48,555 nucleotides of DNA from Alphaproteobacteria bacterium (GTDB lineage Bacteria; Pseudomonadota; Alphaproteobacteria; Rs-D84), in contig WRJH01000002.1 of assembly GCA_009782315.1 (NCBI GenBank), forward strand, positions 1 to 48,555, read 5' to 3'. Positions 944-44,887 of the stretch are shown here, piece by piece (positions within the stretch are counted from its first letter, which is position 1; every line of letters starts with the position of its first letter). The notes below the pieces were generated by a model, which saw nothing but the letters and a program-made list of their open reading frames with translations, ran no database searches and was not told where the DNA came from. The translations under genes were made by a program, and so were the position numbers.

Positions 944-2062
944 ATGATAAAAACCCTTACCATTTCCGATTTCCGCAATCACGAATCCAGCCGGATTATG
1001 GCGAACGTGGCCAAAGCCGTTATAATCACTGGGCCCAACGGCAGCGGCAAGACAAGTATTTTGGAAGCGATTTCAACATTATCCGCAGGGGCGGGACTGC
1101 GCGGGGCAAGCGTCGGCGAGTTGCTGCGCAACTCGCCGACGCAGAGCATAGAGCAGAGAGCAGAGAGCAGAGAATGGGGCGTTGTTGCGGAACTGGACGA
1201 CGATACGAATGTATCCGTATCGTGGCGCGATGGCGATACTTACAGGCGGGCGACCATTGACGGCGACGGCGCGCCGCTTTCCGATTTGGCAAAGGTTTTG
1301 CGGATGGTATGGGTGACGCCGCGGGAAGACCGATTGTTTTGCGACGGCGCGTCCGACCGGCGGGCGTTTTTCGACCGCCTGGCCGCGAATTTCGACCCGT
1401 CGCACATGGGGCGTGCGGCGCGGCTTTCCAAACTGTTGTCCGAACGGGCGTTTGCGTTGAAGTCGTGGCTTGCCGCACGTAGCCCGCAGGGCGAAGTGTG
1501 GATGGATGGAATCGACAAACAGATTGCGCAAACGGCGGTATCGGTCGCCGCCGCCCGTATAAAATACATCGGCGAAATAAATTATTTTCTGCAAGACGCG
1601 CGATATTCTTTAACCATTGCCGGATGTTTGGAAGAAAAACTGGCGGCGGGTATGGCGGCCGCGGATGCGGAACGCGAATATCTGGAATACTTGTCGGGCG
1701 CGCGGACGCTTTGCGGCGACAAGATGACCATAGACGGCGCGCACAAATCCGATTTTGTGATGTTTAACGGCATGCTGGGCATGAACGTCCAAATGACCAG
1801 CACGGGCCAGCAGAAATCCGCGCTGTTATCGCTGGTCATCGCGCATGCGAAACTGGTGCGGGCGCGCACGGGCGCGCGACCCGTCATATTGCTGGACGAA
1901 GCGGCGGCGCATCTGGATGTCGCCGCGCGGGAAAATTTGTTTGCCGAACTTGCCGCCGCGGATTCCCAAGTCTGGGCGACGGGAATCGACAAAGGCCTGT
2001 TCAACGGAATCGACGGTGCGGTATTTGTCGCTTGCGAAAACGGACGAATTGTTGAACAATAG
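944..2062 (+). CDS. recF: DNA replication and repair protein RecF
   Basis: ORF 908-2062. The likely start is ATG 944 (MIKTLTISDFRNHE). Walker A ITGPNGSGKTSILEAI; SMC-like signature STGQQKSALLSL; Walker B VILLDEAAAHLD. Confidence 0.85.
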   Translation: MIKTLTISDFRNHESSRIMANVAKAVIITGPNGSGKTSILEAISTLSAGAGLRGASVGELLRNSPTQSIEQRAESREWGVVAELDDDTNVSVSWRDGDTYRRATIDGDGAPLSDLAKVLRMVWVTPREDRLFCDGASDRRAFFDRLAANFDPSHMGRAARLSKLLSERAFALKSWLAARSPQGEVWMDGIDKQIAQTAVSVAAARIKYIGEINYFLQDARYSLTIAGCLEEKLAAGMAAADAEREYLEYLSGARTLCGDKMTIDGAHKSDFVMFNGMLGMNVQMTSTGQQKSALLSLVIAHAKLVRARTGARPVILLDEAAAHLDVAARENLFAELAAADSQVWATGIDKGLFNGIDGAVFVACENGRIVEQ

Positions 2063-2066
2063 AATC

Positions 2067-2525
2067 ATGGCAAAGAACATTGACTATCAACAGCTTTTGG
2101 AAAACGCGCTGCGCACCGTCGTGAAAGACGCGCTGACCCATGCGCAGTTCAATGGCCTGGGCGAAAATACCCATTTTTACATAACGTTCCGCACAAGAGA
2201 GCCGGGTGTGAATATCCCCGATTTTCTGCGCCTGCGCTATCCCGAAGTTATGACAATCGTTTTGCAGTATTCGTTTTCCAATCTGAACGTCACGGACAAG
2301 GAATTCGGCGTGACGCTGACATTCGACGGCCGGCCGTTCTATATACATATACCGTACGATGCGCTGGTCGAATTCAAGGACCCGTCCGTTGATTTCATGC
2401 TGCAATTCCAAAACCGCGGGCATAACGATTCCAGCAATGATTTAGAGCTTCCCCTGGCGCAGACGCCGGCCGAAGACAAGGGCAGGGTGGTCAGCCTGGA
2501 AGATTTCAAGAAAAATAAAAAATAG
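2067..2525 (+). CDS. sspB: ClpXP adaptor SspB-like protein (alphaproteobacterial type)
   Basis: Internal ATG of ORF 1845-2525, 2 nt after the recF stop. ALRTVVKDAL..HFYITFRTREPGVNIPDFLRLRYPEVMTIVLQYSF..VTLTFDG..FKDPSVDFMLQF matches the remembered SspB-family pattern. Confidence 0.7.
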   Translation: MAKNIDYQQLLENALRTVVKDALTHAQFNGLGENTHFYITFRTREPGVNIPDFLRLRYPEVMTIVLQYSFSNLNVTDKEFGVTLTFDGRPFYIHIPYDALVEFKDPSVDFMLQFQNRGHNDSSNDLELPLAQTPAEDKGRVVSLEDFKKNKK

Positions 2526-2578
2526 CCGGACGTATCCTGCATATGGTATAATGAAACCTGCAAAAAAAGGAGAAAAGT

Positions 2579-2761
2579 ATGAACAAACTTGTAAATTTGA
2601 TTATTACGCTGGGTGTGATTGCGGTTATCCTGTTCGCCGGATATTTCTTTGGCCAACTGGTTGCCGAACACACAAGCCTGGATGCGATGTTTTCCGCGAT
2701 GGCGGGTATTCTGGTCGGAATTGCCGGCGGATACTTTGTATTGCCAAAGATTGTGAAATAA
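2579..2761 (+). CDS. Small two-TM membrane protein, unknown function
   Basis: 60-aa ORF with RBS AAAGGAGAAAAGT-ATG and two hydrophobic helices. An extended -10 TGgTATAAT lies at 2544-2552, and a terminator follows. Confidence 0.55.
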   Translation: MNKLVNLIITLGVIAVILFAGYFFGQLVAEHTSLDAMFSAMAGILVGIAGGYFVLPKIVK

Positions 2762-2762
2762 G

Positions 2763-4138: not shown

Positions 4139-4231
4139 AGAGGTATGAGGTAAGAGGTATGAGGTAAGAAGTATTTAGAGTTGATTTGCTCTATACCTTT
4201 TACCTAATACCTAATACCTCATACCTTCCTC
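4139..4231. repeat. Inverted pair of 7-nt-period arrays (GAGGTAT/GAGGTAA vs TACCTAA/TACCTCA) between accB and accC
   Basis: Left arm gaggtat gaggtaa gaggtat gaggtaa gaagtat. Right arm ataccttt tacctaa tacctaa tacctca taccttc. The arms are mutually complementary. Confidence 0.85.
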
Positions 4232-4984: not shown

Positions 4985-5046
4985 AACTGAGAGCTGAGAA
5001 CTGATATCTGAGAACTGGTTATCAGCTTTCAGTTCTCAGTTTTCAA
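4985..5046. repeat. Inverted pair of 7-nt-period arrays (CTGAGAA family) between rnpA and yidD
   Basis: aactgag agctgag aactgat atctgag aactgg / ttatcag ctttcag ttctcag ttttcaa. The right arm encodes the last residues (KTEN-stop) of RnpA. Confidence 0.8.
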
Positions 5047-5361
5047 TTTCTTCATCGCCGTTCGCATCAGATTTTGCGCCAATGTAAAATCGGCGTCCAG
5101 AATCCGCGCGCGGACGATGAATATGTAATCCAAATCCGGCGACATGTATTTTTCGCATCCGCGTATCCATACGCGCAGCATGCGCTTGCCGCGATTGCGG
5201 TCCACCGCGCGGCGAAGGGTCTTTTTTGTGGATTTTATTCCGTATTTCGCGTCGCCCGGCCAGCGCGTCGGTCGCGCGCGCGCGATAAAGAATTCCGTCC
5301 GAAACGTGGGGTCGTTGTCGGACAATTCGAAATCTTTGTATTTTTTTATAACCGTTCTCAT
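5029..5361 (-). CDS. rnpA: Ribonuclease P protein component
   Basis: 110 aa, basic. RRAVDRNRGKRMLR (RNR-type motif). It lies directly upstream of yidD as in the common rnpA-yidD arrangement. Confidence 0.85.
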   Translation of the reverse strand: MRTVIKKYKDFELSDNDPTFRTEFFIARARPTRWPGDAKYGIKSTKKTLRRAVDRNRGKRMLRVWIRGCEKYMSPDLDYIFIVRARILDADFTLAQNLMRTAMKKLKTEN

Positions 5362-8542: not shown

Positions 8543-8571
8543 ATTATATACCGAAATATATTCATATGCAA
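8543..8571 (-). promoter_or_regulatory. Near-consensus sigma70 promoter TTGCAT-17-TATAAT (minus strand)
   Basis: The plus strand shows ATTATA at 8543-8548 and ATGCAA at 8566-8571, with a 17-nt spacer. Confidence 0.55.
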
Positions 8572-8607
8572 GTTGTTAGTTGTTAGCTGTTAGTTCTTAG
8601 TTGTTAG
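8571..8607. repeat. 7-nt-period array (TTGTTAG family), right arm of distant inverted pair
   Basis: agttgttag ttgttag ctgttag ttcttag ttgttag. Confidence 0.8.
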
Positions 8608-8625
8608 TTTTTTAATCCTTGCCGC

Positions 8626-28350: not shown

Positions 28351-29112
28351 ATGAAAACCCGCCTTGCCAAATTTATTGCGGATTCCGGAATCGCTTCGCG
28401 CCGCGATGCGGAACGGATTATCGAATCCGGCGCCGTTTCGGTGAACGGCGAACGCGTGACGACGCCTGTATTTTTTGTCGGGCCGGACGATAATGTCGTC
28501 TTTCGCGGCAAACAGGTTTTACAACGTCGCGGAACGCGCGTAATCGCATTCAACAAGCCTGTGAGCGTCGTCACCAGCACGCGCGACCCGGATGGCCGCA
28601 AGACCGTTTACGATTGTCTGGCGCCCGAAATGCGCGGATTAAAATATATCGGGCGGCTGGATTTCAAAACGACCGGTCTTTTATTGCTGACCGACGACGG
28701 TGCGCTGGCCCGCCGGCTGACATTGCCGGAAACCGGCTTGGTGCGGACGTATGTCGCGAAACTGCGCCCGGATTTGAAGGCGTCCGCGTTTGCGCGAAAA
28801 TTACGCGAATTTTTATCGCCCCTGTCCGCGGACGATTCCATATTTGACACTTTGCGGCGCGGCGCGACGATTGACGGGGTAAAATATGCGCCGATGGATA
28901 TAGAATTGCTGTCGCGTTATCCGCTGTCCGTTCAAATTAAATTAACAGAAGGCAAAAAGAATGAAATCCGCATAGCGTTCGAACATATCGGCCTTCCGGT
29001 ATCCAAACTGCACCGCGAATCATACGGCCCCGTGGAATTGGGGGATTTGAAGCCGGGAGAGTGGAGGGAGTTGGCAGAAGACGAAGTAAAGAAATTAGCA
29101 ATGGGCAATTAG
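28351..29112 (+). CDS. rRNA pseudouridine synthase, RsuA/RluB family
   Basis: 253 aa. S4 domain RLAKFIADSGIASRRDAERII..G.V.VNG; catalytic GRLDFKTTGLLLLTDDG. Confidence 0.85.
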   Translation: MKTRLAKFIADSGIASRRDAERIIESGAVSVNGERVTTPVFFVGPDDNVVFRGKQVLQRRGTRVIAFNKPVSVVTSTRDPDGRKTVYDCLAPEMRGLKYIGRLDFKTTGLLLLTDDGALARRLTLPETGLVRTYVAKLRPDLKASAFARKLREFLSPLSADDSIFDTLRRGATIDGVKYAPMDIELLSRYPLSVQIKLTEGKKNEIRIAFEHIGLPVSKLHRESYGPVELGDLKPGEWRELAEDEVKKLAMGN

Positions 29113-29210
29113 CAATTATCAATTATTGTGCCGATATTCGCCGACAGTTATTTAATATAGATTGTAAGCGAAGCGAACACATTAATTGCTAATTGCCAAT
29201 TGATAATTAA
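29104..29210. repeat. Inverted pair of 7-nt-period arrays (GCAATTA / TAATTGC)
   Basis: ggcaatt agcaatt atcaatt attg ... cattaattgctaattgccaattgataattaa. Confidence 0.8.
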
Positions 29211-30257: not shown

Positions 30258-30323
30258 TTCCTTCCCCCCTGTCATCTCTATAAACAATTCTATGGGATTT
30301 GCGGGGCAAGAGCAAGGAAAAAA

Positions 30324-30455
30324 TAGGTAACAGGTAATAGGTAATAGGTAGTTCGAGTTAATAGACTGTCTATTATAATAGACAACATGTAAGTGTCCAA
30401 TATATTGGGCAACCACTACTTATTACCTATTACCTATCGCATATCGCCTGTTATC
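30324..30455. repeat. Inverted pair of GGTAATA-type arrays enclosing the TPR-gene promoter
   Basis: aggtaac aggtaat aggtaat aggtag ... ctacttattacctattacctatcgcatatcgcctgttatc. The loop contains TTGGAC-17-TATAAT on the minus strand (30400-30372). Confidence 0.75.
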
Positions 30456-31213
30456 GAGTCGAATTTTTCTTTGCCGACGATAATCGTTCCATCGGAAAAT
30501 TCCGGCCTTGCCTGGGTTTTGATTTCCGTCCGCCAAAAGACGTCCCCGGTGCCGCCCGCTATCGCATACAAGTAACCGTCCGTGCCGACCACATAAGAAA
30601 CGCCCGTCCGGACAATGAACGGCGTGCCGGTGCCGACGCCCGAACACCAAACTTTCGCGCCCGTGTCCGAGTTGAGTTTGCAGAAAGAACCGCCCAATCC
30701 CCCCGCATAGACAAACCGGTCGCCGTCCGTCATTACGGGCGCGACGACGTCAAGTATGCTGGACCCGCCGGTCATCGCGCTGGATTTGAAAATGTCCGCG
30801 ACCCACACCAGGTTGCGCGTAGCCCTATCTATCTTTACGACTTCGCCGGTGGACAGTCCGGCGAATATGTATTTGTCCGTCACCGTCGGCCGTCTTTCGC
30901 CGGAAACATGGGCGGTCGTCGGAAAACCGGAAAATATCCGAATCCGTTCGTCCCCGGATATCCGCCATACTACATTGTTGGAATCCTGTATGTATTCCGC
31001 GGTCCGCACCCCCGGCCGCGATATTTCTTTCAGCGCGTTTTCCGGTACCGGTTTGTCCAGAACCACGATTCCGCCGGTATCGAACACGGAATGCCGTTCG
31101 CCCGGAAGTACCGGGTCCTTGGTGGCGCAGGCGCAAAGCGCTATAAGGCATAGGGCATAAGGCATAGGGCATATGCGCTTTGTAATCATTGAAAGTATTT
31201 TCATCAATCTCAT
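30434..31213 (-). CDS. PQQ-like beta-propeller lipoprotein, BamB-like (short)
   Basis: 259 aa with lipobox LIALCAC-A. Repeated G.v.a.d..tG...W motifs (KIDRATRNLVW, LNSDTGAKVW, AIAGGTGDVFW). It lies downstream of a yfgM-like gene. Confidence 0.6.
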   Translation of the reverse strand: MRLMKILSMITKRICPMPYALCLIALCACATKDPVLPGERHSVFDTGGIVVLDKPVPENALKEISRPGVRTAEYIQDSNNVVWRISGDERIRIFSGFPTTAHVSGERRPTVTDKYIFAGLSTGEVVKIDRATRNLVWVADIFKSSAMTGGSSILDVVAPVMTDGDRFVYAGGLGGSFCKLNSDTGAKVWCSGVGTGTPFIVRTGVSYVVGTDGYLYAIAGGTGDVFWRTEIKTQARPEFSDGTIIVGKEKFDSITGDMR

Positions 31214-31242
31214 ACTTTTATGCCTTATGCCCTATGCCTTGT
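31141..31242. repeat. Inverted GGCATAR arrays straddling the bamB-like start codon
   Basis: ctataaggcatagggcataaggcatagggcata (encodes the signal peptide PMPYALCL) and ttttatgccttatgccctatgccttg. There are 22 consecutive complementary nt, and the start codon 31211-31213 lies in the loop. Confidence 0.85.
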
Positions 31243-31937
31243 TACTTCAACATCTCTGCCTGGGCGGAAATGGATGCGGGCGCGTCCTTGTCCGACGTTA
31301 TGCGGTCCAGCCATTTGCGCGCGGACGCATCGTCGCCGGATGCCAGATATTTTTGCGCAATCAAAAGCATGCCGGTGTAATAGAACGGCGACCGTTTCGT
31401 CTGGACGGGCGCCAAATGGCGCGCAAACTGCCCCGCCGTCATGTCGGTCGCCTTTATGACCGCCAGGTTGATAAGCGCCAAATCCCGAAAATCGCGCGTG
31501 TTGCCGTCTTTGGCCAATTGTTCCAGCCGCACCAGCCCGTCTTCTATATTGCCGGTTTGCAAATCCAGTTTCGCCGCGGAAAACAGCGCCAGGTCCGCCA
31601 TGCCGCCGCCGGACTGTCTTGCGGCGCGGACAAGCGCCTCGCGCGCGGCGGCCGTGTTCCCGGATTCCATCATCATGACGGCCGATTCATACGCGGCGGC
31701 AGATTGGCGCAGGGTCCGCGCGTTGTGCATCCGCAAAAGCTGCAGCCCCGAAACAACGACAATCGCCAGCGCGGCGGCCGCGATAAGAATGCGGGAATGT
31801 TTTTTTACGAAATCGTACGCGGCTTCCGCATGAACCTCTTCATTTACTTCCCTGTACAGCGCGTCTTCGGCGTGGTCTTGCAGCGTCTTTTTCGGCGCGG
31901 CCGGTTTTTTTGCAAATCTTGTCAGCATTGATGCCAT
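31242..31937 (-). CDS. YfgM-like membrane-anchored TPR-like protein
   Basis: Internal ATG 31937 (MASMLTRF, RBS AAAGGAG) of ORF 31242-32288. It has one TM helix followed by a helical-repeat domain, and lies upstream of the bamB-like gene as in yfgM-bamB. Confidence 0.55.
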   Translation of the reverse strand: MASMLTRFAKKPAAPKKTLQDHAEDALYREVNEEVHAEAAYDFVKKHSRILIAAAALAIVVVSGLQLLRMHNARTLRQSAAAYESAVMMMESGNTAAAREALVRAARQSGGGMADLALFSAAKLDLQTGNIEDGLVRLEQLAKDGNTRDFRDLALINLAVIKATDMTAGQFARHLAPVQTKRSPFYYTGMLLIAQKYLASGDDASARKWLDRITSDKDAPASISAQAEMLK

Positions 31938-32022: not shown

Positions 32023-32955
32023 ATGAAAGTCAAAAGCGAAAAGAGACAAGACAACGATACAAGGGACGAAGCCGCCCTGCCGGCCGTCTGCAACCCCTTG
32101 CCCATTGTGACGTCCGACGACGCCAATCTGGAACGGTATATCCGGTCCGTCCAGAATTTTCCCATGCTTTCCGCCGAAGAGGAATACGAATACGCGCAAA
32201 GCTGGCGCCGGGCGGGCGACAAGTTCGCGGCCGAAAAACTGGTGTCCAGCCATCTGCGCATGGTCGTTTCCGTCGCGTACGATTTCAAGAATTACGGAAT
32301 TCCCGTCGCGGATTTGATTGCCAGCGGCAATTTGGGACTGATGCAGGCGCTTTCCAAATTCGACCCGGAACGCGGATTCCGGTTTTCAACGTACGCCATG
32401 TTCTGGATAAAGGCGGAGATTTACGACACCGTTCTGAACAACTGGTCTTTGGTAAAAATCGGAACGTCGGCGAATCAAAAGCGCGTGTTCTTTAACCTGG
32501 CGCGGGCCAAACGCGCGCTGGGCATAATGGACAACAATCTTTCCGACGACCAGACAAAGCAAATCGCGGAATATTTGGAAGTTCCGGAACTGGACGTGTC
32601 GCGCATGCAAAAACGCATCGCCGCGCGCGATTTGTCGCTGAACCGGCCGGCGCGCGACGAGTCCGATTCGCCGGACATGCTTTCCAATCTGGCGGATGAC
32701 GAAAATTCAATCGAAGACAAATTAGAACAATCGCAATTCAGAAATTTCGGGCGCGAGCTGTTGCAAAAACATCTGGCGGCGATGCCGGAACGCGACCGCG
32801 AAATTTTAATCGCAAGGCGCCTGTCCGACCCGGCGCCGACCCTGGAGCAATTATCCGAACGGCACAAGATTTCGCGCGAACGCGTCCGGCAGATAGAAGA
32901 GCGGGCGTTTGCAAAACTGCGGGACGCGATTCTGGCGGATGCCAACAAGTCATAA
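32023..32955 (+). CDS. rpoH: RNA polymerase sigma-32 factor RpoH
   Basis: 310 aa. Region 2 LVSSHLRMVVSVA, YAMFWIKAEI; RpoH-box-like QKRVFFNLARAK; region 4.2 ISRERVRQIEERA. Confidence 0.9.
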   Translation: MKVKSEKRQDNDTRDEAALPAVCNPLPIVTSDDANLERYIRSVQNFPMLSAEEEYEYAQSWRRAGDKFAAEKLVSSHLRMVVSVAYDFKNYGIPVADLIASGNLGLMQALSKFDPERGFRFSTYAMFWIKAEIYDTVLNNWSLVKIGTSANQKRVFFNLARAKRALGIMDNNLSDDQTKQIAEYLEVPELDVSRMQKRIAARDLSLNRPARDESDSPDMLSNLADDENSIEDKLEQSQFRNFGRELLQKHLAAMPERDREILIARRLSDPAPTLEQLSERHKISRERVRQIEERAFAKLRDAILADANKS

Positions 32956-33051
32956 GGCATAGGGCATAAGGCATAAATAATATGAGATTGATTAAACTAG
33001 TTTCAATAAGCACAAAACTGATATGCCTTATGCCCTATGCCTTATGCCTTG
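32949..33051. repeat. Inverted GGCATAR arrays straddling the porin-like start codon
   Basis: gtcataaggcatagggcataaggcataaat ... atatgccttatgccctatgccttatgccttg. The 24-nt core ataaggcatagggcataaggcata is the same as at 25261 and 31143. The right arm encodes CLMPYALCLA. Confidence 0.85.
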
Positions 33052-34028
33052 CGTCGCCTGCGGCGGCATACACATACAACAGGGACGGCGTCGGGCTGCG
33101 CCTGAACGGATACGGGACTGCGGGCGCCGCTTTCCCTGAACCGCTGATTTACGATTACCGCGTTCGCGGCCAGGCGAATTACGCCGTGCGAGGCGGCTGG
33201 ACATTGGGCGCCGTTTATTCTTTTGACCGGCTGGCCTATGAATTCGACAGATATTATTCCGACGCGTTCATATTCGCGGAAAGCCCGTACGGCCGCACGG
33301 AATTGGGTTGGACCGAATCGGTTGCGGCGAAACTGGGGCTGGGGCTGCCCGATGTCGGCGCCCTGCGAATGAACAACACGCCGATTTTATACAAGGTGAC
33401 CGATACGTCGGACGTTATTTCAAATTCAACATTAACAGGGACCAGATATTCTTTCCGCGCAACCGCCGTGTCGCTGCCCACCAATGTTGTTCAGGCCGGC
33501 ATGTCGGTTTCGCCGTTCGATACGCATTTTAATTCTGCGACCGACGTCGGAATAAAATTCCGACAGCCGCACGGCAAGACAAAACTGGCGCTGTCCGCCG
33601 CCGCCGGATTTGTGGACAGCCCCCGCGATTTGAACGCGGATATTTATACAGCGCCCGTCACCGCTGATTCGCGCATGCAGGCCGCGTTGGGTGCGAATGT
33701 TCAATACACCAGTTGGAATTTCGGAGCGACCGTTCGCGGGATTTACGACCATAACGCGATAACGCGCCCGTCGGACGGATTGCAGACCGGCGTCGGCGCC
33801 AGTTACGACTTCCTTGCCTGGTCCGCGTCGGTATCGTACATATTGTCCAACGTCGGTATATGGGGCAACCATCCGGACTATCCGAATTCGACGACCACCC
33901 ATACCGGCATTGTGTCGCTGCGTTACAAAATCGACGAATATTTCGAAATGTTCGGGTCGGGCGGCGCGGTGTCATCCCCGGGTGACGTACAACCGTTTGT
34001 TGCCGCCGGACTGCATGGAAAGTTTTGA
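32982..34028 (+). CDS. Outer membrane beta-barrel (porin-like) protein
   Basis: 348 aa with a signal peptide. Alternating beta-strand pattern with aromatic girdles; C-terminal ..GLHGKF ends in Phe, as in OMP sorting signals. Confidence 0.6.
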   Translation: MRLIKLVSISTKLICLMPYALCLASPAAAYTYNRDGVGLRLNGYGTAGAAFPEPLIYDYRVRGQANYAVRGGWTLGAVYSFDRLAYEFDRYYSDAFIFAESPYGRTELGWTESVAAKLGLGLPDVGALRMNNTPILYKVTDTSDVISNSTLTGTRYSFRATAVSLPTNVVQAGMSVSPFDTHFNSATDVGIKFRQPHGKTKLALSAAAGFVDSPRDLNADIYTAPVTADSRMQAALGANVQYTSWNFGATVRGIYDHNAITRPSDGLQTGVGASYDFLAWSASVSYILSNVGIWGNHPDYPNSTTTHTGIVSLRYKIDEYFEMFGSGGAVSSPGDVQPFVAAGLHGKF

Positions 34029-34805: not shown

Positions 34806-34991
34806 CCGTTTACCGTTTACCGTTTACCGTTTACCGCCTTTCGCGACTTTCGGCAAATGAATCACGGAATTTGCACTTTGTTAAATTCCACTGTATAATA
34901 AACACGAATAAACAAAAAAACAATCACAAAATTTTCGTTATTTGTTCCGCATTGCGCGGTGAACGGAAAACGGAAAACGGAAAACGGAAAT
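34806..34991. repeat. Inverted CCGTTTA / AACGGAA arrays enclosing the yip1-der divergent promoter region
   Basis: ccgttta x4 at 34806-34840 and ggtgaac ggaaaac ggaaaac ggaaaac ggaaata at 34958-34991. The der ATG is at 34992. Confidence 0.85.
34871..34899 (+). promoter_or_regulatory. Near-consensus promoter TTGCAC-17-TATAAT for der
   Basis: TTGCAC 34871-34876, TATAAT 34894-34899. Confidence 0.5.
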
Positions 34992-36326
34992 ATGAAAATC
35001 GCAATCGCAGGGCGACCCAATACGGGAAAATCAACGCTGTTCAACCAGTTGACGCGTTCGCGCGACGCCATCGTCCACAACAGGCCGGGCGTTACCCGCG
35101 ACGTGGTTTCCGGCATGCTGCGCATGGCCGAAGACACGGATATAGAACTGTTCGACACCGCGGGATTGGAAACGAAAACCGACGAAATTGGTAAAATTTC
35201 AACAGACAAATCGTTGGCCGCGATAAAGGGCGCGGACGCGGTCCTGTTCGTGGTCGACGGCAAGGCGGGGCTGGTGCCGGGCGATACGGAATGGACGCGC
35301 ATTGTAAAAAAGGCGGGAAAGCCCGTATTGTTGCTGGTTAATAAAACCGAGGGCAAACGCACAGGCGATTTGTCCGAATTTTACAAACTGGGCCTGGGCG
35401 AGCCGGTGCCGGTTTCGGCGGAACACAAACAGGGGTTCGATGCGATTTCCGAATTTATATCGAAACTTGAAAAACCAAATCAGAAATCAGAAATCGAAAA
35501 TCAGAAATCAAGCGACGCGATTCGCGTCGCGATTATGGGACAGCCGAATGTCGGCAAGTCCACATTGGTGAATAAAATTCTGGGCGAAGACCGCGTAATC
35601 GTCCGCGACGAACCCGGCGTCACCCGCGATACCATCGCGATAAAAACAAAATTCCTGGGCCGCGATATGACGATTGTCGACACCGCCGGTCTGCGGCGCA
35701 AGGCCGGAATCACGGACGATGTCGAAACTTTGGCCGCGCTGAAATCACTTGACGCCATTTCCAAATCCGATGCCGTCATCCTGATAGTCGACGCGACGAA
35801 AAATATCGAAAACCAGGCGCTGGGCATCGCAGGGAGAGTGTACGACGCCGGAAAAATCCTGGCGGTCGCTTTGAACAAATGGGACCTGGTGCCGGAAGAA
35901 ATACGCGAAGACAAGCTGTTGAAATTAAAGCACCAGTTTGCGGACAGCTTTCACCAGATTATAAAACCGCTGATACTGCCCATCAGCGCGGAACAGGGGC
36001 GCGGCGTTAAAAACATGATAAAGCGCGTGTACGAATTGTGGGACCTTTCCAACGAACACGCCGCGACAAGTTTCGTAAATCGCACGCTTGAAAAACTGAT
36101 GGCCGCGCGCCAGCCGCCTATGTCGCGCCTGAAACGTCCGATGAAAATAAAATTCGCCAGCCAGACCGGAAAACGCCCGATGCGAATAACCGTCAATGTC
36201 GGCGGCACATCCGATATTCCCGAATCATATACCCGATATCTGCGCAAGGGGATTGCAAAGGCGCTGCGCTGGGAATCGCTGCCCGTCGTAATCGAATACG
36301 CGAAAACAGAAAACCCGTACGATTAG
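34992..36326 (+). CDS. der: Ribosome-associated GTPase Der (EngA)
   Basis: Internal ATG 34992 (MKIAIAGRPNTGKSTLFN). The second G domain has GQPNVGKSTLVN, DTAG and NKWD motifs, followed by a KH-like C-terminus. A heptamer array lies in the inter-domain linker. Confidence 0.95.
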   Translation: MKIAIAGRPNTGKSTLFNQLTRSRDAIVHNRPGVTRDVVSGMLRMAEDTDIELFDTAGLETKTDEIGKISTDKSLAAIKGADAVLFVVDGKAGLVPGDTEWTRIVKKAGKPVLLLVNKTEGKRTGDLSEFYKLGLGEPVPVSAEHKQGFDAISEFISKLEKPNQKSEIENQKSSDAIRVAIMGQPNVGKSTLVNKILGEDRVIVRDEPGVTRDTIAIKTKFLGRDMTIVDTAGLRRKAGITDDVETLAALKSLDAISKSDAVILIVDATKNIENQALGIAGRVYDAGKILAVALNKWDLVPEEIREDKLLKLKHQFADSFHQIIKPLILPISAEQGRGVKNMIKRVYELWDLSNEHAATSFVNRTLEKLMAARQPPMSRLKRPMKIKFASQTGKRPMRITVNVGGTSDIPESYTRYLRKGIAKALRWESLPVVIEYAKTENPYD

Positions 36327-36468: not shown

Positions 36469-37083
36469 TTACCAGCGCGGGGCGCGTTTGCCTTCTTTAA
36501 GTATCGGCTGTTCGTTTTCCCAAACCGACAGGCCCGTCTTCAAATCCGTCAGTGTCAGCTGCAGATAATATTCCACGCGTTCGTTTTTGCTGTCGAACCA
36601 TCCGCTGTCCAGTTTCAGATTACGCTGCAACATCTTGCCCGACAAGGACATGTTCGGCGCGACCAATGTTCCCTTGCCCGCGAATGAATTGGCGGCGTAT
36701 TCCGAATTGCCGCGCATATCGCGCATTGTGTTGCTGGTCGTGTCTTCGCCGCCGAAATTAGTGGCAATCTGTGCGCGGCCGGAATTGACCAGGTCGCTGC
36801 GGATTTTCTTGGTCAGTATGTCCGTGTCGAAACGCTGCTGGGTGTCGTTAATCATCGGGCCCATTGCGATAACCGGGTCTTTGATTCGCGCGAATCCGCC
36901 GGATTTGAACATGGAATTAACCATTTCTTCGGCCGTGTTCGTCCAATCCCTATATTCCAATTCCATCACATGGCTCATCCCCGATACCGCTTTCGAATCG
37001 TTCGTGTCGATTACTTTCGTTCCGCCGCAGGCGCAGAGCATAAGGCATAAGGCATAAGGCATAAGGCATTTTATTTTGTTCAT
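36469..37083 (-). CDS. LpoB-like (COG3417-type) lipoprotein
   Basis: 204 aa with lipobox LMLCAC-G. DWTNTAEEMVNSM..IAMGPMINDTQQRFDTDILTKKIRSDLVNSGRAQI resembles the LpoB-family core. From memory. Confidence 0.5.
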   Translation of the reverse strand: MNKIKCLMPYALCLMLCACGGTKVIDTNDSKAVSGMSHVMELEYRDWTNTAEEMVNSMFKSGGFARIKDPVIAMGPMINDTQQRFDTDILTKKIRSDLVNSGRAQIATNFGGEDTTSNTMRDMRGNSEYAANSFAGKGTLVAPNMSLSGKMLQRNLKLDSGWFDSKNERVEYYLQLTLTDLKTGLSVWENEQPILKEGKRAPRW

Positions 37084-37086: not shown

Positions 37087-38340
37087 TTATCCTTTTAGTT
37101 TTATTATTTTTGGTTTAATTTCTTCGTTCGGCAATCTTATGTAGACAAGATGGTTTCCGTGTCTTTCAATTTTGAATTCTGTAACAACTGTACCACCGGA
37201 TTTTAATGTAATCAAGCAATCATTGCTTTTGCACTTTGCATCCTTGTCAATCCGCAGCACGTATATTTTCTTTGGCAATGTGGCCCATGTTCGGATTTCG
37301 GCGCTGGTCATAGCCATGCCGGCCGCGACCGCCGCGATTCCGCCAAGCGTTCCGCCGTAATGGTTCGCCGTGCCCTGCATCGCCAATTTCGTCGCCGCGC
37401 TTGCGGCCGCGCGCAGCGCATCGTTGACCGCGTATTCTTTGTATTCCGTCATAAACATGGCGTCGATGTTCGCGACCAATTCCGCCCCGTCGACGGCTTG
37501 CCCGCCGTCAAGCATAATCGGTTCCGACACTGCAATCGATACGGCGCTTACGCCGCCGGCGGTAACCATGGGCCAATCGATTCGCCGTTCGATCAATTTC
37601 GGCGAAAATCCCGATTCGATAAATATCCATGCAGTGTTTACGGGCGTGCGCCGCGCGGAAGCGGCGGCCAGGTCTTGTTTTATAAATTTGTTGCCGGGCG
37701 CCATTCCGTCCGCGCGCGACAGGTATGTGCGCGCGGTTTCAAAATCCGACGGGCCCGACGCGAAATTCAAAAAATATATTCCGGCAAGGTAAGTCAACGC
37801 CGGATTCATAATATCCTTGAAAGATTCCCAAGACGCGTTTTCGGCGCGCAATTGTTTGCCCAGGCCGTTCGAATCTTTTTCCTTTTTACGAATCAGCGAC
37901 GCGTATTCGGCGGACAGGCGCTGTTGTTTCGCGTACGATTGATTTATAATCACGCGGGCGTCGGCTGTTCGTCCGTCCGCAATCGCGGACCATATCTGGT
38001 AATACGAAACAAACAGGTCGTCCATAAAATACGGCTTGTAATCCGCGGACAGATTTCCGGCGATGGCGCGGCCGATTTCGCCGGTTATGCCGGAAGACTG
38101 CGCTTTTTCCATCCGGCGGTTTATGGATTCGAATTCTTTGTCCGCGTCGCCGAATTTATTTTGTTGGAACAGCGCGTTCCCGGAAAGCAAAGGGTCCAGG
38201 TTTTTATCGCCGACTTTTTGTTTTTCGAATACGCCCGCCTTGAAATCGGCCCGCGCGTCGTCAAGGCGTTTTTCCATAGACCCGGCGCAGGCGCCAAGAA
38301 AGAGCATAGAGCATAGAGCAAAGATAATAGACTTGTTCAT
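37087..38340 (-). CDS. Lipoprotein of unknown function (417 aa)
   Basis: Lipobox LFLGAC-A. It is co-oriented with the lpoB-like gene, 3 nt upstream of it. The signal peptide is partly encoded by a GAGCATA array. Confidence 0.6.
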   Translation of the reverse strand: MNKSIIFALCSMLFLGACAGSMEKRLDDARADFKAGVFEKQKVGDKNLDPLLSGNALFQQNKFGDADKEFESINRRMEKAQSSGITGEIGRAIAGNLSADYKPYFMDDLFVSYYQIWSAIADGRTADARVIINQSYAKQQRLSAEYASLIRKKEKDSNGLGKQLRAENASWESFKDIMNPALTYLAGIYFLNFASGPSDFETARTYLSRADGMAPGNKFIKQDLAAASARRTPVNTAWIFIESGFSPKLIERRIDWPMVTAGGVSAVSIAVSEPIMLDGGQAVDGAELVANIDAMFMTEYKEYAVNDALRAAASAATKLAMQGTANHYGGTLGGIAAVAAGMAMTSAEIRTWATLPKKIYVLRIDKDAKCKSNDCLITLKSGGTVVTEFKIERHGNHLVYIRLPNEEIKPKIIKLKG

Positions 38341-40266: not shown

Positions 40267-41489
40267 AACAGCGCGGAAGCAATCTTCTTGAAACATTGCT
40301 GGCCATCGGGTTGGTTTCGGCGATGGCGCCTTTTGTGTACAACCGCGTGGCCGAAGTCAGCCGCGATATAAAAGACGTCGCCATGGCGCGGCAGATAGCG
40401 GGGTGGAAATACCCCGTGTCCGGATTTATCCGAAGCAGTCAGATGAATTGGGAGGAAGACAAGCTGGTCGAATTGGACGCAAAGGAATTGCAAGAGATTG
40501 CAGGTAAGGAAATCAAAGGCGCTATAGCGATGACGCCCGCTTTCGCATTCATTGAAAAGTTCAGACATCTGGGCGGCGTCACGGTCGAGGCATATCTGTT
40601 GTTCCCAGGAAAATTCGACGGAATCCGAATGCATAAGATAGCGCGTCATCTGGGCGCGGACGCCGCCGTCGCGGGGCCGGAAAACACGGCGTTTTCCGTC
40701 GGCGGCGGATGGAGCATAGAGACGGAAATGATGCAGGAAAACGATTTGGTGTACCGGATACCGGTCGAATTGCCCCGGGATGATTCGTTCAATTTTATGC
40801 ACCGGGTGGATGCGGGCGACGAACGTCTGAACACCATGGAGCGCAATCTGATGATGGCGCGCAACAACGTGACGAACGCCGGCGCCGTGGGCGCGGGACT
40901 GCTTGATTCTAAGATGGTGTCCGGATGGTTCGCGGCCATAGAATCGTTCGCCGCGGACGAAGCAGTGTTTCCGGACGGCGCGAACATGGACGGAAGCAAC
41001 GCGTCGTTCGACGGAGTTCGCGTCATGGGCGACGTCGTCGGATTCAGAAACATCCAGGCGGATTTGTTCGAAGGCGGCGGCGGCGCGGGAAACTGGTCCG
41101 CCCAGGGCGATATAATCGCAAGCCGCGCCCAGATTATGGAATCGGTCCGCGTCGGGCGGACCATGACCGTAAAGTCGGCGACATCAAGGACCGTTTCCGG
41201 ATTCACAGGGATCAGCGCGTACAACCTGACCGTGCCGTTCGTGTCCGCGGACGAGATGCGCTTTGCGGACGGATTGGGTCTGGTCGTGTCAAACGAACTG
41301 TCGTCAAGTTATTCCGATGCGCCGCTGAAACTGGGCAACTGGATGTTAACATCGCAAAGCGCGGCGCCCGGATTTTCGTCGTTAACCGTTTCTAATGCGG
41401 GAAACATGGAGTTCAATGTGCCGGCGGAAAAATTCGGGGAAATAATGAAGGAAGGATGGAAGGATTCAGAGAGCATAGAGCAAAGATAA
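40260..41489 (+). CDS. Large type IV pilin-like protein, paralog B (409 aa)
   Basis: Internal ATG 40260 overlaps the stop of A (ATGCTAG). MLEQRG/SNLLETLLAIGLVSAMAPF is a short basic leader ending in Gly, with Glu at +5 and a hydrophobic helix. FMHRVDAGDERLNTMERNLMMARNNVTNAG. Confidence 0.7.
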   Translation: MLEQRGSNLLETLLAIGLVSAMAPFVYNRVAEVSRDIKDVAMARQIAGWKYPVSGFIRSSQMNWEEDKLVELDAKELQEIAGKEIKGAIAMTPAFAFIEKFRHLGGVTVEAYLLFPGKFDGIRMHKIARHLGADAAVAGPENTAFSVGGGWSIETEMMQENDLVYRIPVELPRDDSFNFMHRVDAGDERLNTMERNLMMARNNVTNAGAVGAGLLDSKMVSGWFAAIESFAADEAVFPDGANMDGSNASFDGVRVMGDVVGFRNIQADLFEGGGGAGNWSAQGDIIASRAQIMESVRVGRTMTVKSATSRTVSGFTGISAYNLTVPFVSADEMRFADGLGLVVSNELSSSYSDAPLKLGNWMLTSQSAAPGFSSLTVSNAGNMEFNVPAEKFGEIMKEGWKDSESIEQR

Positions 41490-41587
41490 TAGAGCATAGA
41501 TGGGGTCGTTACAGGTGTTGAATATAAAAAAATATTTTTCAAATTGTTCAAAGCATTTATGCTCTATGCTCTATGCTCTATGCTCTG
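41468..41587. repeat. Inverted GAGCATA arrays between pilin-like genes B and C
   Basis: agagagcatagagcaaagataatagagcatagatgg ... tttatgctctatgctctatgctctatgctctg. Confidence 0.85.
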
Positions 41588-42888: not shown

Positions 42889-42900
42889 ATTTCCTTTACA

Positions 42901-43383
42901 ATGCGCGTTGATATGAAAATCAAATGCCCTTTTTGCAGAACGGATTACGCGGCGGACATCCCCGGCGGCAAGCGCGCGGAATGCGCGCTGTGCGGACATG
43001 CGTGGATGCCGCCCAGACACCGCGGCCCGATTCTGATATGGGGTGCGGTCCTTTTTGCCGCCGTGTTTGCAGGGATGGCCGCGGTCAGATATATGCCGAC
43101 AAAAAAACCGAAAGCGCCCCTGGTCATCGAAATGACCGGCGTCCAAAAGACGGCCGAAGAAGCATGGGTCGTATCGGGCCGCGTCAGAAATTTGTCCGGA
43201 AAAATTTACGGAATTCCGGATATGGCGCTGGTCGTGAAAAATAACGCGGGCGACGAGGTTCTGCGCCAGAAAGTGCGCCCGCCGGTGCCGATTCTGGATA
43301 TAGGAGAGGCGGCGGAATTCGCCCACACTATCGCCGATTTTCCGCCGGCTGCGAAAAAACTGGCGGTGGAGTTTATAAAGTAG
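42901..43383 (+). CDS. Zinc-ribbon (MJ0042-type) + TM + DUF3426-like protein, ZitP-like
   Basis: 160 aa. KCPFCRTDY..(16)..CALCGHAW is a CxxC..CxxC ribbon. TM helix ILIWGAVLFAAVFAGMAAV. The C-terminal beta-rich domain has VSGRVRNLSG..VVKNNAGDEVL..LDIGEAAEF. Confidence 0.65.
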   Translation: MRVDMKIKCPFCRTDYAADIPGGKRAECALCGHAWMPPRHRGPILIWGAVLFAAVFAGMAAVRYMPTKKPKAPLVIEMTGVQKTAEEAWVVSGRVRNLSGKIYGIPDMALVVKNNAGDEVLRQKVRPPVPILDIGEAAEFAHTIADFPPAAKKLAVEFIK

Positions 43384-43509
43384 AGCATAGATAATAGAGC
43401 ATAGAGTATAACAATGGAGAATATACAAATGATGACATTAAAAAATAAATCTATGAAATTTTTCAAAAACATATATCTATGCTCTATGCTCTATGCTCTA
43501 TGCTCTATT
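43381..43509. repeat. Inverted GAGCATA arrays straddling the start of the next exported-protein gene
   Basis: tagagcatagataatagagcatagagtata ... atctatgctctatgctctatgctctatgctctatt. The start codons 43414/43429/43453 lie in the loop. The right arm encodes LCSMLYALCSI. Confidence 0.85.
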
Positions 43510-43932
43510 TGCGCGCACGCGCAATCCCTGCCGCCGGCGACCATCACAATGTTCGCGACCAGCGCGGATTGGGAGGCAATCACCGGCATGCGCATGTCCG
43601 AATACCGCGTGACTTTCGGCCGCGACAGGTCCGTATCGACAATTGGAACGGAACTGTATTTTCTGGACGCGTTTCCTTGTTTCGGCCAGGCCGAGGCCGC
43701 GCGCGCATGGGTCGCCCCCGCGACATCGTTCCAGATGGACAACGACGCGCGCATGCGCATCGTGTGCGTGTATCCGCCGAAAGAATTACAGTTCGCTTTC
43801 CGCGAAGTGCGGCGCGACGCAGTTCAGGGCGTAACCACGGGAATCGCCGTATGTCCGGCAGCGCACAGCGGACGGAATTTGACCGTGCGCCTGAACGAAT
43901 GCGAAAGAACAGACTGGAATGACATCAAATAA
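43429..43932 (+). CDS. Small exported protein, unknown function
   Basis: ORF 43414-43932. The preferred start is ATG 43429 (RBS GGAGA 8 nt upstream). Signal peptide ..FFKNIYLCSMLYALCSICAHA/QS. It overlaps the rluD start by 14 nt. Confidence 0.55.
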   Translation: MMTLKNKSMKFFKNIYLCSMLYALCSICAHAQSLPPATITMFATSADWEAITGMRMSEYRVTFGRDRSVSTIGTELYFLDAFPCFGQAEAARAWVAPATSFQMDNDARMRIVCVYPPKELQFAFREVRRDAVQGVTTGIAVCPAAHSGRNLTVRLNECERTDWNDIK

Positions 43933-44887
43933 TAAATTTATTTTTATCGTTGAAGACGGGGATGCGGGAATTCGCGTCGACAAGTTTGTCGCGTCCAAAA
44001 TTCCGGAATATTCGCGGTCGGAGATTCAGAAATTCCAAATCACGAAAAACGGCAATGAAATAAAACTTTCCGATAAAGTAAAAGTCGGCGAAGAATACGA
44101 AGTAATTATTCCAGAAAAAAAACCGGTAAACGTTAAACGGAAAACGGTAAACGAAACGATGTCGTTAGACATCGTTTATGAAGACGCCGACATCATCGTA
44201 ATAAACAAGCCGCGCGGAATAGCCATGTATCCCGGCGCCGGACGCGAAGATGGAACATTGGTCCAGGCGGTCCTTGCGCACACAGAATTGTCGTCCATCG
44301 GTGCGGACGGAATGCGCCCCGGCGTCGTGCACCGTCTGGACAAAGATACCAGCGGCGTTATAGTTTTTGCAAAAACCGACGCGGCGCACCGCGTGCTGTC
44401 CCATGTTTTCTCCGAACACAATCTGGTGCGGAAATACATCGCGTTCGTATGGGGCGTTCCGAACTGGCTGGGTGCCGACATATCCGGAAACATCGGACGG
44501 TCGACGCGCAACAGACAAAAAATGACAATGCTGAAAACCGGCGGCAAGCCGGCGAAGACACACGCCGAAGTCATCAACGTCTGGCCGCGGACCGGAATTT
44601 CGGAATTGCGGTGCACTTTGGAAACCGGGCGGACGCACCAGATTCGCGTGCATTTGTCGGCGCACGGTTTTCCGGTTTTATGCGACCCGATTTACGGTCG
44701 CGGACAGACAAGGCTGGGCAGCGTCAAGAACCCGGAATTGTTGGAATTTATCCGGGCGGGCGGCGGCCAGATGCTGCACGCCGAAGTCTTGGAACTTTCC
44801 CATCCGATTACGGGCGAAATGTTGAAATTCAAGGCGAAACTTCCCGACGATATGCGTGAATTGAAAGAGATTTTGAATGATATGTAG
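43919..44887 (+). CDS. rluD: 23S rRNA pseudouridine synthase RluD (RluA family)
   Basis: 322 aa. S4 domain; catalytic HRLDKDTSGVIVFAKT; GRTHQIRVHL. Confidence 0.9.
   Translation: MTSNNKFIFIVEDGDAGIRVDKFVASKIPEYSRSEIQKFQITKNGNEIKLSDKVKVGEEYEVIIPEKKPVNVKRKTVNETMSLDIVYEDADIIVINKPRGIAMYPGAGREDGTLVQAVLAHTELSSIGADGMRPGVVHRLDKDTSGVIVFAKTDAAHRVLSHVFSEHNLVRKYIAFVWGVPNWLGADISGNIGRSTRNRQKMTMLKTGGKPAKTHAEVINVWPRTGISELRCTLETGRTHQIRVHLSAHGFPVLCDPIYGRGQTRLGSVKNPELLEFIRAGGGQMLHAEVLELSHPITGEMLKFKAKLPDDMRELKEILNDM

Follow-up and report, generated by a model that had tools for sequence, protein, structure and literature searches.

Heptanucleotides are the commonest class of long simple sequence repeats (SSRs) in many bacteria, and long SSRs with units of 5-11 nt, in later accounts of the survey that described them, are sporadic in phylogeny, lie mostly in non-coding DNA and were proposed to arise by slippage (Mrazek 2007, as summarised in PMC4679880 and PMC4692102). 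A closely related case is GGGAATC in Xanthomonas, with 186 and 183 arrays in two genomes and 70-75 inverted pairs in each; its arrays are mostly intergenic and typically of about 4 copies, with a minority overlapping open reading frames (ORFs), their positions are conserved and their lengths and sequences variable, the single or paired type is preserved, the inverted pairs are convergently oriented and could form stem-loops, and most repeats are transcribed (Rehm et al. 2015, PMC4692102). TAACTGA repeats of Beggiatoaceae, cyanobacteria and Bacteroidetes, mostly intergenic and of 2-6 copies, often end a few nucleotides before a start codon and show 7-nt-step indels between strains; stops occur in every frame of their forward strand, the reverse strand can be translated, and reversed arrays are found in variable protein loops (MacGregor 2015, PMC4679880). 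Within coding sequence, the pyrimidine-rich SSR CTCTT of Neisseria opa lies in the region coding the leader peptide of an outer-membrane protein (PMC3960869). Here we describe tandem heptamer arrays, mostly arranged as inverted pairs at gene junctions, in a 48,555-nt stretch of DNA (hereafter the window; positions 1 to 48,555 of contig WRJH01000002.1) from an uncultured termite-gut alphaproteobacterium of the Rs-D84 lineage. We lean towards the interpretation that they are clade-specific, fast-turnover and essentially selfish or neutral heptanucleotide SSR arrays organised as palindromic hairpin elements.

A first-pass annotation of the window, made from its letters alone, had counted more than 25 loci of tandem heptamers, and this was borne out by the 45 period-7 rows returned by Tandem Repeats Finder, which span 1143 to 44153 with 2.3-7.1 copies apiece, mostly 3-6, and by the 39 arrays of a lenient scan. 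A strict self-match scan gave 15 arrays of period 7, 11 of the multiple period 14 and one of period 12, with none at periods 4-6, 8-11, 13 or 15. The excess over shuffled sequence is clear in both scans: 20 dinucleotide-preserving shuffles yielded 0 arrays of whatever period in the strict scan, and 30 Markov-1 simulations a mean of 1.0 and a maximum of 5 in the lenient one. The arrays occupy 2.6% of the window at a density of approximately 5-8 per 10 kb, and they are poorer in GC (0.40) than the window as a whole (0.53). At least 12 unit families occur, including all those that had been named, with AAGGCAT (at 6 loci) and AGAGCAT dominant. The period, which had been called strictly 7 nt, is less rigid than that, because unit length alternates between 7 and 6 in the lptF/nusA hairpin, and relatives have period-8 and period-6 families. 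The claim that no such repeat class had been described does not stand either, since heptanucleotide SSRs are known and inverted pairs of them have been published for Xanthomonas (PMC4692102).

The window is part of a 59-kb MEGAHIT metagenome contig (ENA assembly ERZ27257320), which might raise the suspicion of an assembly artefact, as might a contig from another data set that terminates within the infB/rsmE hairpin loop (L166, equivalent to window 25304-26379). However, the data set concerned, JGI 3300002505, comes from another sample and another assembler, and its three contigs covering window 36433-37385, 42689-44211 and 25304-26379 are 100% identical to it, solo arrays and one complete hairpin pair included. 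Because these second-sample contigs are identical across the arrays, the arrays are not an assembly artefact. Moreover, metagenome-assembled genomes (MAGs) from several independent projects carry arrays, array-containing proteins are on record from NCBI, Logan and JGI sources, the arrays lie in frame in conserved genes, and composition alone would give 0-1 arrays rather than 15-39. The artefact or chance explanation, to which we would assign a negligible probability, is already refuted; the contig end in the loop rather suggests that the palindromes break short-read assemblies.

The genes of the window are ordinary Gram-negative housekeeping genes (accBC, pnp, rlmN, lptD/F, nusA-infB, rsmE, der, bamB and lpoB among them). 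In a search of 185,579 species genomes, the relatives identified by IF-2 were all uncultured gut Alphaproteobacteria, the nearest, at 72-86% identity, being hindgut MAGs of higher termites (Herve et al. 2020, PMC7024585) and the more distant ones Candidatus Enterousia-like MAGs of vertebrate guts. When 80 orthologous 20-kb neighbourhoods of collection genomes and 80 metagenome loci (designated by L numbers) were scanned, period-7 arrays were found in termite-associated lineages (16 in L008, 9 in L089, 8 in L155, 7 in L014 and 6 in L009, the last with 7 additional arrays of period 8). In contrast, the orthologous loci of about 65 more distant relatives had 0 arrays, several of these genomes having a GC content of 0.50-0.55, so that relatives of like composition, some of equal GC, lack them. 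The trait is patchy on the IF-2 tree, with the array-free L003 and the low-GC L010-L017 group nested among array-rich genomes, and the dominant unit changes from relative to relative (AAATCGT in L008, AAATCAC in L004, AAATCTT in L009, AAAAATG in L014 and AAGAATG in L053). Array presence is an all-or-none, phylogenetically patchy state of the whole genome; such a pattern in close relatives speaks for a cause that acts genome-wide, whether a mutational regime or a trans-acting factor, and not for locus-by-locus function. As to strains of the same species, the metagenome scan gave no IF-2 above 89% identity, and three short same-strain JGI contigs were recovered. In L009, from a Cubitermes gut, inverted pairs of 8-nt units (GTGACAGA / TCTGTCAC) were found at 6798-6943, 16962-17101 and 19239-19363, and 7-nt and alternating 6/7-nt families coexist with this 8-nt family.

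Approximately 15 inverted pairs occur in the window, with arm complementarity of 80-97%, and they constitute palindromic hairpin elements 70-130 nt long that fold to stems of 25-35 bp (z -5.2 to -13.5; 0/200 shuffles folded equally well). Arrays are carried by 19 of the 39 gene junctions (tandem 12/21, divergent 5/9 and convergent 2/9). The layout given in the first-pass annotation, mostly inverted pairs at gene junctions, thus holds in the main, but about one third of the window's arrays are inside coding sequence. In a wider survey of 114 arrays at 11 loci, 52 were intergenic although the window is 86% coding, which indicates enrichment in non-coding DNA.

Several known classes of element were considered and rejected. 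No heptamer hairpin is among the 49 terminator-like sites, and T-tails are lacking; in L155, a relative of 82% identity, an AAAGAGT / ACTCTTT hairpin downstream of infB (~1840-1990) is itself flanked by two canonical terminators of the GC-stem/T-run type that belong to the convergent genes, in agreement with the earlier view that the arrays are not terminators. The 7-nt units follow one another head-to-tail without spacers, which equally upholds the distinction from CRISPRs. REP, BIME and REPIN elements were rejected because the window has 0 matches to GTAG N4-30 CTAC against 1.9 expected; the arrays do differ from REPs, as had been stated, but the GTAG-headed REPs that had been reported alongside them were not found, there being no GTAG...CTAC hairpin in the window. 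A G-quadruplex reading, the interpretation offered in Xanthomonas, was rejected as well, with no G-tracts in the arrays and 1 G-quadruplex motif in the window. An Rfam scan returned tRNAs only.

In the window and in L002, L004, L006, L008, L009 and L014, the nusA-infB gap is a spacer of 87-118 nt that mainly forms a periodic-stem hairpin, the units of which are unrelated among these genomes (CCGTNNN, GCTGGTG, GTGTAAAA, AGAGTAAG, AGTTATA, TCGTGNC and GTGTCA), while the infB leader and the stem base TTCGT...ACGAA are conserved (the stem base in the window, L002 and L009). The gap is merely 6-24 nt in L003, L007, L017 and L020. Likewise, the position is kept and the unit differs at the surA-rlmN gap and at the 5′ ends of bamB, hyp348 and the surA-like gene, and the nusA-infB, surA-rlmN and bamB 5′ junctions of array-free relatives measure 2-24 nt. 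Even between the window and its closest relative, L002, the unit is kept at only one of the five sites compared. Hairpin position, as judged from these junctions, is retained between genomes while the unit sequence turns over. Units at different loci of a single genome resemble each other more closely than those at one locus in two genomes, which calls for some sequence transfer among loci.

Within the window such transfer is evident from elements that resemble each other beyond their units. The three AAGGCAT hairpins (copies 1-3 in the table, the second reversed) have a common loop of ~45 nt and an identical mirrored order of variant units, AAGTCAT-AAGGCAT-AGGGCAT-AAGGCAT, and their arms are more conserved than their loops. 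The two AGAGCAT hairpins have in common an AGATAAT unit, the loop sequence and an ATG right after the 5′ arm. The array in the recF-like gene, together with the neighbouring ATGGGGCGTT, matches the 5′ half of the AGAGCAT element and is a half-element of that family. Common loops and common variant order show copying between loci, although in the AGGTA family the arms are common and the loops are not. The AGAGCAT copies combine a perfect coding arm with a degenerate 5′ arm, and on the source contig past the window end (L167 21378-21451) the longest array seen, a perfect (CATAGAG)x10.5, is located upstream of o455 opposite an arm of 4.4 units that codes the o455 signal peptide; a single arm can expand alone, and the 10.5-unit array is a good candidate for length polymorphism. 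The loops at BamB (31176-31217) and hyp348 (32977-33021) are also alike in providing the start codon and a basic n-region, MRLMK or MRLIK, so that with array and loop in common the whole signal peptide looks like a copied cassette; in the third AAGGCAT loop (25286-25331), which is non-coding, CAG replaces ATG. Immediately before the in-frame AGAGCAG array of the recF-like gene, a perfect 15-bp G+C-rich hairpin (GCGTCGGCGAGTTGC TGC GCAACTCGCCGACGC) at 1110-1142 is located inside the coding sequence, and the two together resemble an inserted block.

Multi-copy families with homologous loops and identical variant order would also be expected of non-autonomous MITE-like (miniature inverted-repeat transposable element) or REPIN-like mobile elements served by a trans-acting enzyme encoded elsewhere, for example a hairpin-recognising HUH/Y1 transposase or another nuclease, and array-free relatives would then be those that lost the enzyme. 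Genome-specific unit families, the all-or-none occurrence among close relatives and the REPIN-like conservation of arms over loops are in keeping with this. However, Pfam scans covering 37 ORFs of the 59-kb contig revealed no transposase or RAYT, and the sole nuclease-like gene on it codes a stand-alone GIY-YIG protein of 107 aa from a widespread family (L167 13553-13876); the elements have no GTAG/CTAC head, and inspection by eye of the flanks of the three AAGGCAT copies showed no target-site duplications. Furthermore, the AGGTA family lacks common loops, single arms expand alone, and the retained TTCGT...ACGAA base and the repeated occupation of the same junctions fit in-situ turnover better than repeated insertion. 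We consider a mobilising enzyme of this kind unlikely, and less likely than the translational alternative discussed below.

An aspect that the first-pass annotation missed is the translation of many arrays, which yields signal-peptide cores and linkers. As 7 and 3 have no common factor, an array yields one 7-residue peptide in all three frames; (ATGCCTT)n reads MPYALCL and is stop-free, and its complement (AAGGCAT)n has TAA in each frame. An array codes the hydrophobic core in seven of the nine window proteins with a recognisable N-terminal signal peptide, as judged by eye from the n-region, hydrophobic core, lipobox or AXA pattern and family membership (BamB, LpoB, LptD); BamB and LpoB are members of lipoprotein families, and the rest of the contig adds two further array-coded signal peptides. 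Orthologous signal peptides in relatives are built from the relatives' own units (TATGCTC or CTGTGCT in L002, TTTTCAT in L014, CTTTATG or TGTCACT in L009), and those of array-free relatives are ordinary. Deeper intragenic arrays lie in hypervariable linkers: in the N-terminal region of IF-2, between the domains of Der, at the hinge of RsmE (MPYALCLMP) and in insertions of RlmN. In the orientation survey of the same 114 arrays, those in the first 40 codons (n=30) had 65% pyrimidine on the sense strand and a mean hydropathy of +1.26, and internal arrays (n=26) 40% and -1.26. The arrays are sorted by context: the pyrimidine-rich arm serves as signal-peptide core, and purine-rich arrays lie in hydrophilic linkers. 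A search of (MPYALCL)x6 against 5.8 billion proteins found only 16 tiny ORFs, and such short array peptides cannot reach significance. One of the records, the 65-aa 'hypothetical protein' P0016 of Bartonella sp. AA56HLJMS, is 100% identical to (MPYALCL)n over ~25 residues, which implies an (ATGCCTT)n array of roughly 11 units in another alphaproteobacterium.

Because 7 is not a multiple of 3, gain or loss of a unit shifts the frame, and the arrays might be contingency loci at which a change of one unit in a signal-peptide array turns an envelope protein on or off, with upstream arrays tuning the promoter or leader. At the hmw promoters of Haemophilus influenzae, 7-bp repeats tune promoter strength (HMW1A phase variation). 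The leader-peptide arrays of exported proteins described above, the perfect 10.5-unit array upstream of o455 and the precedent of the opa CTCTT leader repeats (PMC3960869) would be consistent with such a role. Against it, the genes hit are essential housekeeping ones (LptD, BamB, SurA-like, LpoB), whose switching off would harm or kill the cell, the arrays mostly have 3-5 units, which is short for high-frequency slippage, unit numbers were identical in two independent samples, and most arrays are non-coding. Phase variation therefore seems highly unlikely.

The placement of the hairpins relative to codons is very regular. In 11 of 12 cases of a gene ending beside a hairpin, the stop codon falls between -6 and +22 nt relative to the hairpin edge. 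In lptD, bamB, hyp348, orf172 and orf462 the start codon follows right after the 5′ arm, 30-35 nt into the hairpin and at the start of the loop, and in rlmN, accC, der, hyp204 and lptF the array ends 0-8 nt 5′ of the start codon. This regularity supports the main rival explanation, regulation of translation by coupling or start-site occlusion, in which the hairpin acts as a cis-regulatory RNA: a 25-35 bp stem hides or frames the downstream start codon and is overcome by translational coupling to the upstream gene, stem melting or RNase III-type processing, with the elements elsewhere acting as REP-like 3′ stabilisers. It is further favoured by the recurrence of the order 5′ arm, start-codon loop and 3′ arm at bamB, hyp348 and surA in the window, L002 and L014 with different units, by the great stability of the stems (z down to -13.5), and by the transcription of most Xanthomonas heptamer repeats and the adjacency of TAACTGA repeats to start codons. 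However, the close relatives L003, L007, L017 and L020 have the same operons without the hairpin, which is consequently dispensable. Hairpins also lie between convergent genes and, in L155, between two terminators. The top sigma-70-like matches of the 16-36 kb region are inside long loops (30372-30399, 21010-21037 and 34870-34899) and point to the adjacent TPR, lptF and der genes; a transcript starting at such a site in the loop of a divergent pair would carry one arm only and form no RNA hairpin. In addition, partnerless solo arrays (surA-like, lpoB, lipo417) code signal peptides too, and stems of -45 to -60 kcal/mol across the essential lptD and bamB would strongly inhibit expression. On balance we doubt that this is the main reason why the hairpins exist, though it is the explanation that competes most directly with ours. 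A rule by which the purine-rich arm would mimic a Shine-Dalgarno sequence before the start codon was dropped, as the accB-accC and surA-rlmN pairs have the pyrimidine-rich arm at the start.

A further possibility is that the period and not the sequence is selected, the units being phased sites for a single-strand binder that covers ~7 nt per monomer, such as an OB-fold cold-shock or S1-like protein, a role suggested before for TAACTGA repeats. The conservation of period without unit sequence, and the nusA-infB hairpin, in which mismatches recur so that 4 of 7 nt pair in each unit while both arms keep a 7-nt register, would accord with this, and CspB binds heptamer repeats with one protein per unit (as summarised in PMC4679880). 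Periods of 6, 8 and alternating 6/7 in the same clade speak against it, the units are too diverse for sequence-specific binding, long duplexes would exclude the protein, and array-free close relatives would surely encode the same cold-shock and S1 proteins. We give this explanation only a very remote chance; like phase variation and a mobilising enzyme, it ranks as less likely.

Based on these findings, we propose that replication slippage would add and remove units, ~7 nt at a time (6-8 nt in some families), and that whole arm-loop-arm elements or half-elements are copied among the loci of one genome, perhaps by ectopic gene conversion or by hairpin-specific mobilisation in trans, giving rise to genome-specific unit families. 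Arm complementarity could be kept by palindrome-maintaining template switching or by selection, and purifying selection sets where and in which orientation arrays survive. Arrays take up intergenic gaps right to the adjoining stop and start codons, the pyrimidine-rich strand, being free of stops, is tolerated and used as signal-peptide core, and the purine-rich strand is tolerated in hydrophilic linkers; effects on translation or mRNA fate would be secondary consequences. The selective filter is evident from the sorting rule and from the linker and signal-peptide locations, and the occupation of tandem, divergent and convergent junctions alike, that is, the lack of a single functional context, supports the proposal. 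Several observations weigh against it. The very regular stop and start layout, found again in genomes whose units differ, could just as well be a sign of function; the periodic mismatches at nusA-infB are not predicted by simple palindrome-correcting template switching; the failure to find a transposase or RAYT on the contig bears on the copying mechanism as well; and repeat numbers, compared between two samples only, were identical in three contigs. As no unit-number polymorphism was seen between the samples, slippage is deduced only from between-genome differences and arm asymmetry.

The features on which this account is based are collected in the table, where strand is given as recorded and z refers to folding.

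Table. Period-7 arrays and inverted pairs of the window, in order of position
Feature	Position	Strand	Units or arms	Context and product
In-frame array	1143..1173	+	(AGAGCAG)x4.4	recF-like gene; peptide SIEQRAESRE
Inverted pair	4139..4228		(GAGGTAW)x5 / (ATACCTN)x5, 18-nt loop	29/36 complementary, z -8.9; whole accB-accC junction, both genes minus strand
Inverted pair	4985..5049		(AACTGAG)x4.7 / (CTCAGTT-like)x4.6, nearly loopless	accB/OEP divergent region
Solo intergenic array	8571..8609		(AGTTGTT)x5.6	Upstream of pnp
In-frame array	16392..16426	-	(CTTCACG)x5	rlmN, hypervariable insertion; LHASRLTPYAS
Second rlmN array	16596-16624		6/7-nt units	TNTNHEHD
Inverted pair	16876..16957		(TAATAGG)x6.4 / (ATACCTA)x4.1, 8-nt loop	z -8.7; extends exactly from surA-like stop codon to rlmN start codon
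Solo array	17754..17787	-	(ATGCCTT)x4.4	Codes LMPYALCLMPC, SurA-like signal-peptide core; N-terminus MKTICKFLMPYALCLMPC...
Inverted pair	19805..19906		AACTAAG / AGTTCTT	Spans lptF stop and lptD start
Inner arm of preceding pair	19805-19837			Codes LptD signal-peptide core, ...LVLGSSLLVFS...
Inverted pair	20969..21103		TTCGTGG.TCCGTG / AACCACG.AACCAC, alternating 7/6-nt units	lptF/nusA divergent region; 50-nt loop with promoter-like site; adjoins lptF start codon
Inverted pair	22792..22863		(CCGTNNN)x4.7 / (ACGGATA)x3.6-5	nusA-infB gap, z -5.2
In-frame array	23217..23247	+	(CAGGAAT)x4.4	Variable N-terminal region of IF-2
AAGGCAT element, copy 1	25250..25365	+	AAGGCAT	Non-coding; 31/34 complementary, z -13.5; between convergent infB and rsmE, both stop codons within arms
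AAGGCAT arms	25860..26092		AAGGCAT, arms 171 nt apart	Left arm in rsmE, MPYALCLMP; right arm just upstream of rsmE start
Inverted pair	29093..29210		(AATTAGC)x4.7 / (TAATTGC)x3.7	Convergent rluB/TPR genes, z -6.2
Inverted pair	30322..30437		(AATAGGT)x4.1 / (TACCTAT)x3	bamB/TPR gap, z -7.0; loop holds top promoter-like match of scanned region (11/12)
AAGGCAT element, copy 2	31143..31244	-	AAGGCAT	z -7.5; TPR21 stop at outer edge, bamB start codon in loop; inner arm codes ICPMPYALCLI, then lipobox
BamB signal-peptide array	31143-31173			N-terminus MRLMKILSMITKRICPMPYALCLIALCAC...
AAGGCAT element, copy 3	32947..33052	+	AAGGCAT	z -9.5; sig70 stop in 5′ arm, hyp348 start codon in loop; 3′ arm codes ICLMPYALCL
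hyp348 signal-peptide array	33022-33052			N-terminus MRLIKLVSISTKLICLMPYALCLASPAAA...
Inverted pair	34806..34990		(CCGTTTA)x4.4 / (AACGGAA)x4.1	Flanks 125-nt hyp204/der divergent promoter region; each arm stops 1-8 nt short of a start codon
In-frame array	35477..35510	+	(AAATCAG)x4.9	Der linker between two GTPase domains; NQKSEIENQKS
Solo array	37038..37069	-	(ATGCCTT)x4.6	Codes CLMPYALCLM, LpoB lipoprotein signal peptide; N-terminus MNKIKCLMPYALCLMLCAC...
Solo array	38301..38324	-	(ATGCTCT)x3.4	Codes FALCSML of lipo417 signal peptide, then lipobox LGAC; N-terminus MNKSIIFALCSMLFLGAC...
AGAGCAT element	41470..41586	+	Degenerate 5′ arm, perfect (TATGCTC)x4 3′ arm	z -7.5; orf462 ATG immediately 3′ of 5′ arm
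AGAGCAT element	43381..43508	+	3′ arm (TCTATGC)x4.7	z -8.1; orf160 stop at edge, orf172 start in loop; 3′ arm codes LCSMLYALCS of orf172 signal peptide
orf172 signal-peptide array	43476-43508			...YLCSMLYALCSICAHA...
In-frame array	44121..44153	+	(CGGTAAA)x4.3	rluD-like pseudouridine synthase gene

Two other features of the window deserve mention. A stretch of 5.4 kb (~10970-16390) with six gene junctions has zero arrays; it contains two tRNA genes, a partial tRNA-like match (11431-11486), small ORFs and a Fic/DOC gene with a low third-position GC of 0.45, and it is possibly an island acquired too recently to have accumulated arrays. Adjoining rsmE is a lone gene for a TraG/VirD4-type type IV coupling protein (26113-28347); the pairing of the two genes is conserved in L004, L006 and L014, the coupling protein gene occurs in L020 as well, and the neighbourhood holds no other conjugation genes.

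Why heptamers dominate the long SSRs of bacteria, and how one unit comes to fill hundreds of loci, has been open since the SSR surveys of 2007, and for the spread of heptamers it was written that 'no mechanism is evident' (MacGregor 2015, PMC4679880). The clade described here is favourable for study, as its arrays are dense, its unit families many and its elements present as paralogues within one genome, and the existence of array-rich and array-free sister genomes makes a genetic determinant searchable by comparative genomics. The arrays also offer a concrete route from 'junk' repeats to protein sequence, in signal-peptide cores and in linkers of cytoplasmic proteins; our literature search found no report of SSR-coded signal-peptide cores in housekeeping envelope proteins, and this is apparently the first case in which SSR arrays routinely supply them. 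Practical effects include broken assemblies, mis-called start codons and spurious small ORFs. As a more speculative extension, and something of a long shot, a clade-specific trans-acting process, be it an enzyme or an altered replication or repair regime, might write and homogenise the arrays and thereby yield portable gene-boundary cassettes that gate translation, each comprising an all-frame stop, a loop with start codon and basic n-region, and a hydrophobic array. If this were true, such cassettes would create or replace the signal peptides of envelope proteins, with the hairpin gating their translation.

Compared with known systems, the arrays come closest to those of Xanthomonas, with which they have in common same-unit convergent pairs, an intergenic location and, at nusA-infB, surA-rlmN, bamB and hyp348, a retained gene context. 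Instead of a single G-rich, G-quadruplex unit, however, there are at least 12 families with a GC content of 0.40, and GGGAATC is never tandem; the unit differs between close relatives, and translation as signal peptides was not reported there. With a Xanthomonas genome of roughly 5 Mb, the density there is ~0.4 arrays per 10 kb against ~5-8 here, a difference of about 15-fold. As in the long SSRs surveyed in 2007 by Mrazek, the heptamers are head-to-tail, exceed expectation and are enriched outside coding sequence; that survey, as far as its later summaries convey, covers neither inverted pairing, conserved-loop elements nor signal-peptide use, and the present lineage was then not yet available. 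The TAACTGA repeats resemble the arrays that end 0-8 nt before the rlmN, accC, der, hyp204 and lptF starts, but they are one unit across phyla, inverted in 1 of 170 sets, while here there are many units and most are paired; the window has 1 single copy of TAACTGA and 0 tandem ones. Cyanobacterial STRR sequences of Calothrix and Anabaena form several tandem heptamer families per genome, intergenic, with units such as CCCCAGT, TTGGTCA and CAACAGT; none of these units is tandem in the window, the host lineage, Alphaproteobacteria, differs, and to our knowledge inverted pairing is not a defining feature of STRR.

The nearest analogue of the signal-peptide use is opa, which likewise places repeats of a unit not divisible by 3 in the leader coding region, though opa is one phase-variable adhesin family with many units, whereas housekeeping envelope genes with 3-5 units are concerned here. 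REP, BIME and REPIN elements, Correia elements and MITEs are similar in being short, multi-copy, genome-specific intergenic palindromes whose stems are better conserved than their loops, which occupy gene junctions and can contain promoters or influence mRNA; the elements described here differ from the REP and MITE families in their tandem short-period stem units and the lack of a GTAG head. The AAGGCAT and AGAGCAT families, but not AGGTA, are MITE-like in having terminal inverted repeats and homologous interiors. The analogy with Rickettsia palindromic elements, drawn at the outset, is apt as regards behaviour, since those too are alphaproteobacterial and tolerated in frame at surface or variable regions of genes, as the arrays are in IF-2, Der, RsmE, RlmN and the RecF-like protein; in structure those elements differ, being fixed-sequence families of 100-150 bp and not tandem heptamers. 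No paper on repeats in this lineage was found in the literature. What appears to be new relative to all these systems is the density of the arrays, the many AT-rich families that are not G-rich, the turnover of units at fixed positions, the paralogy of elements within a genome and the use of arrays as signal-peptide cores.

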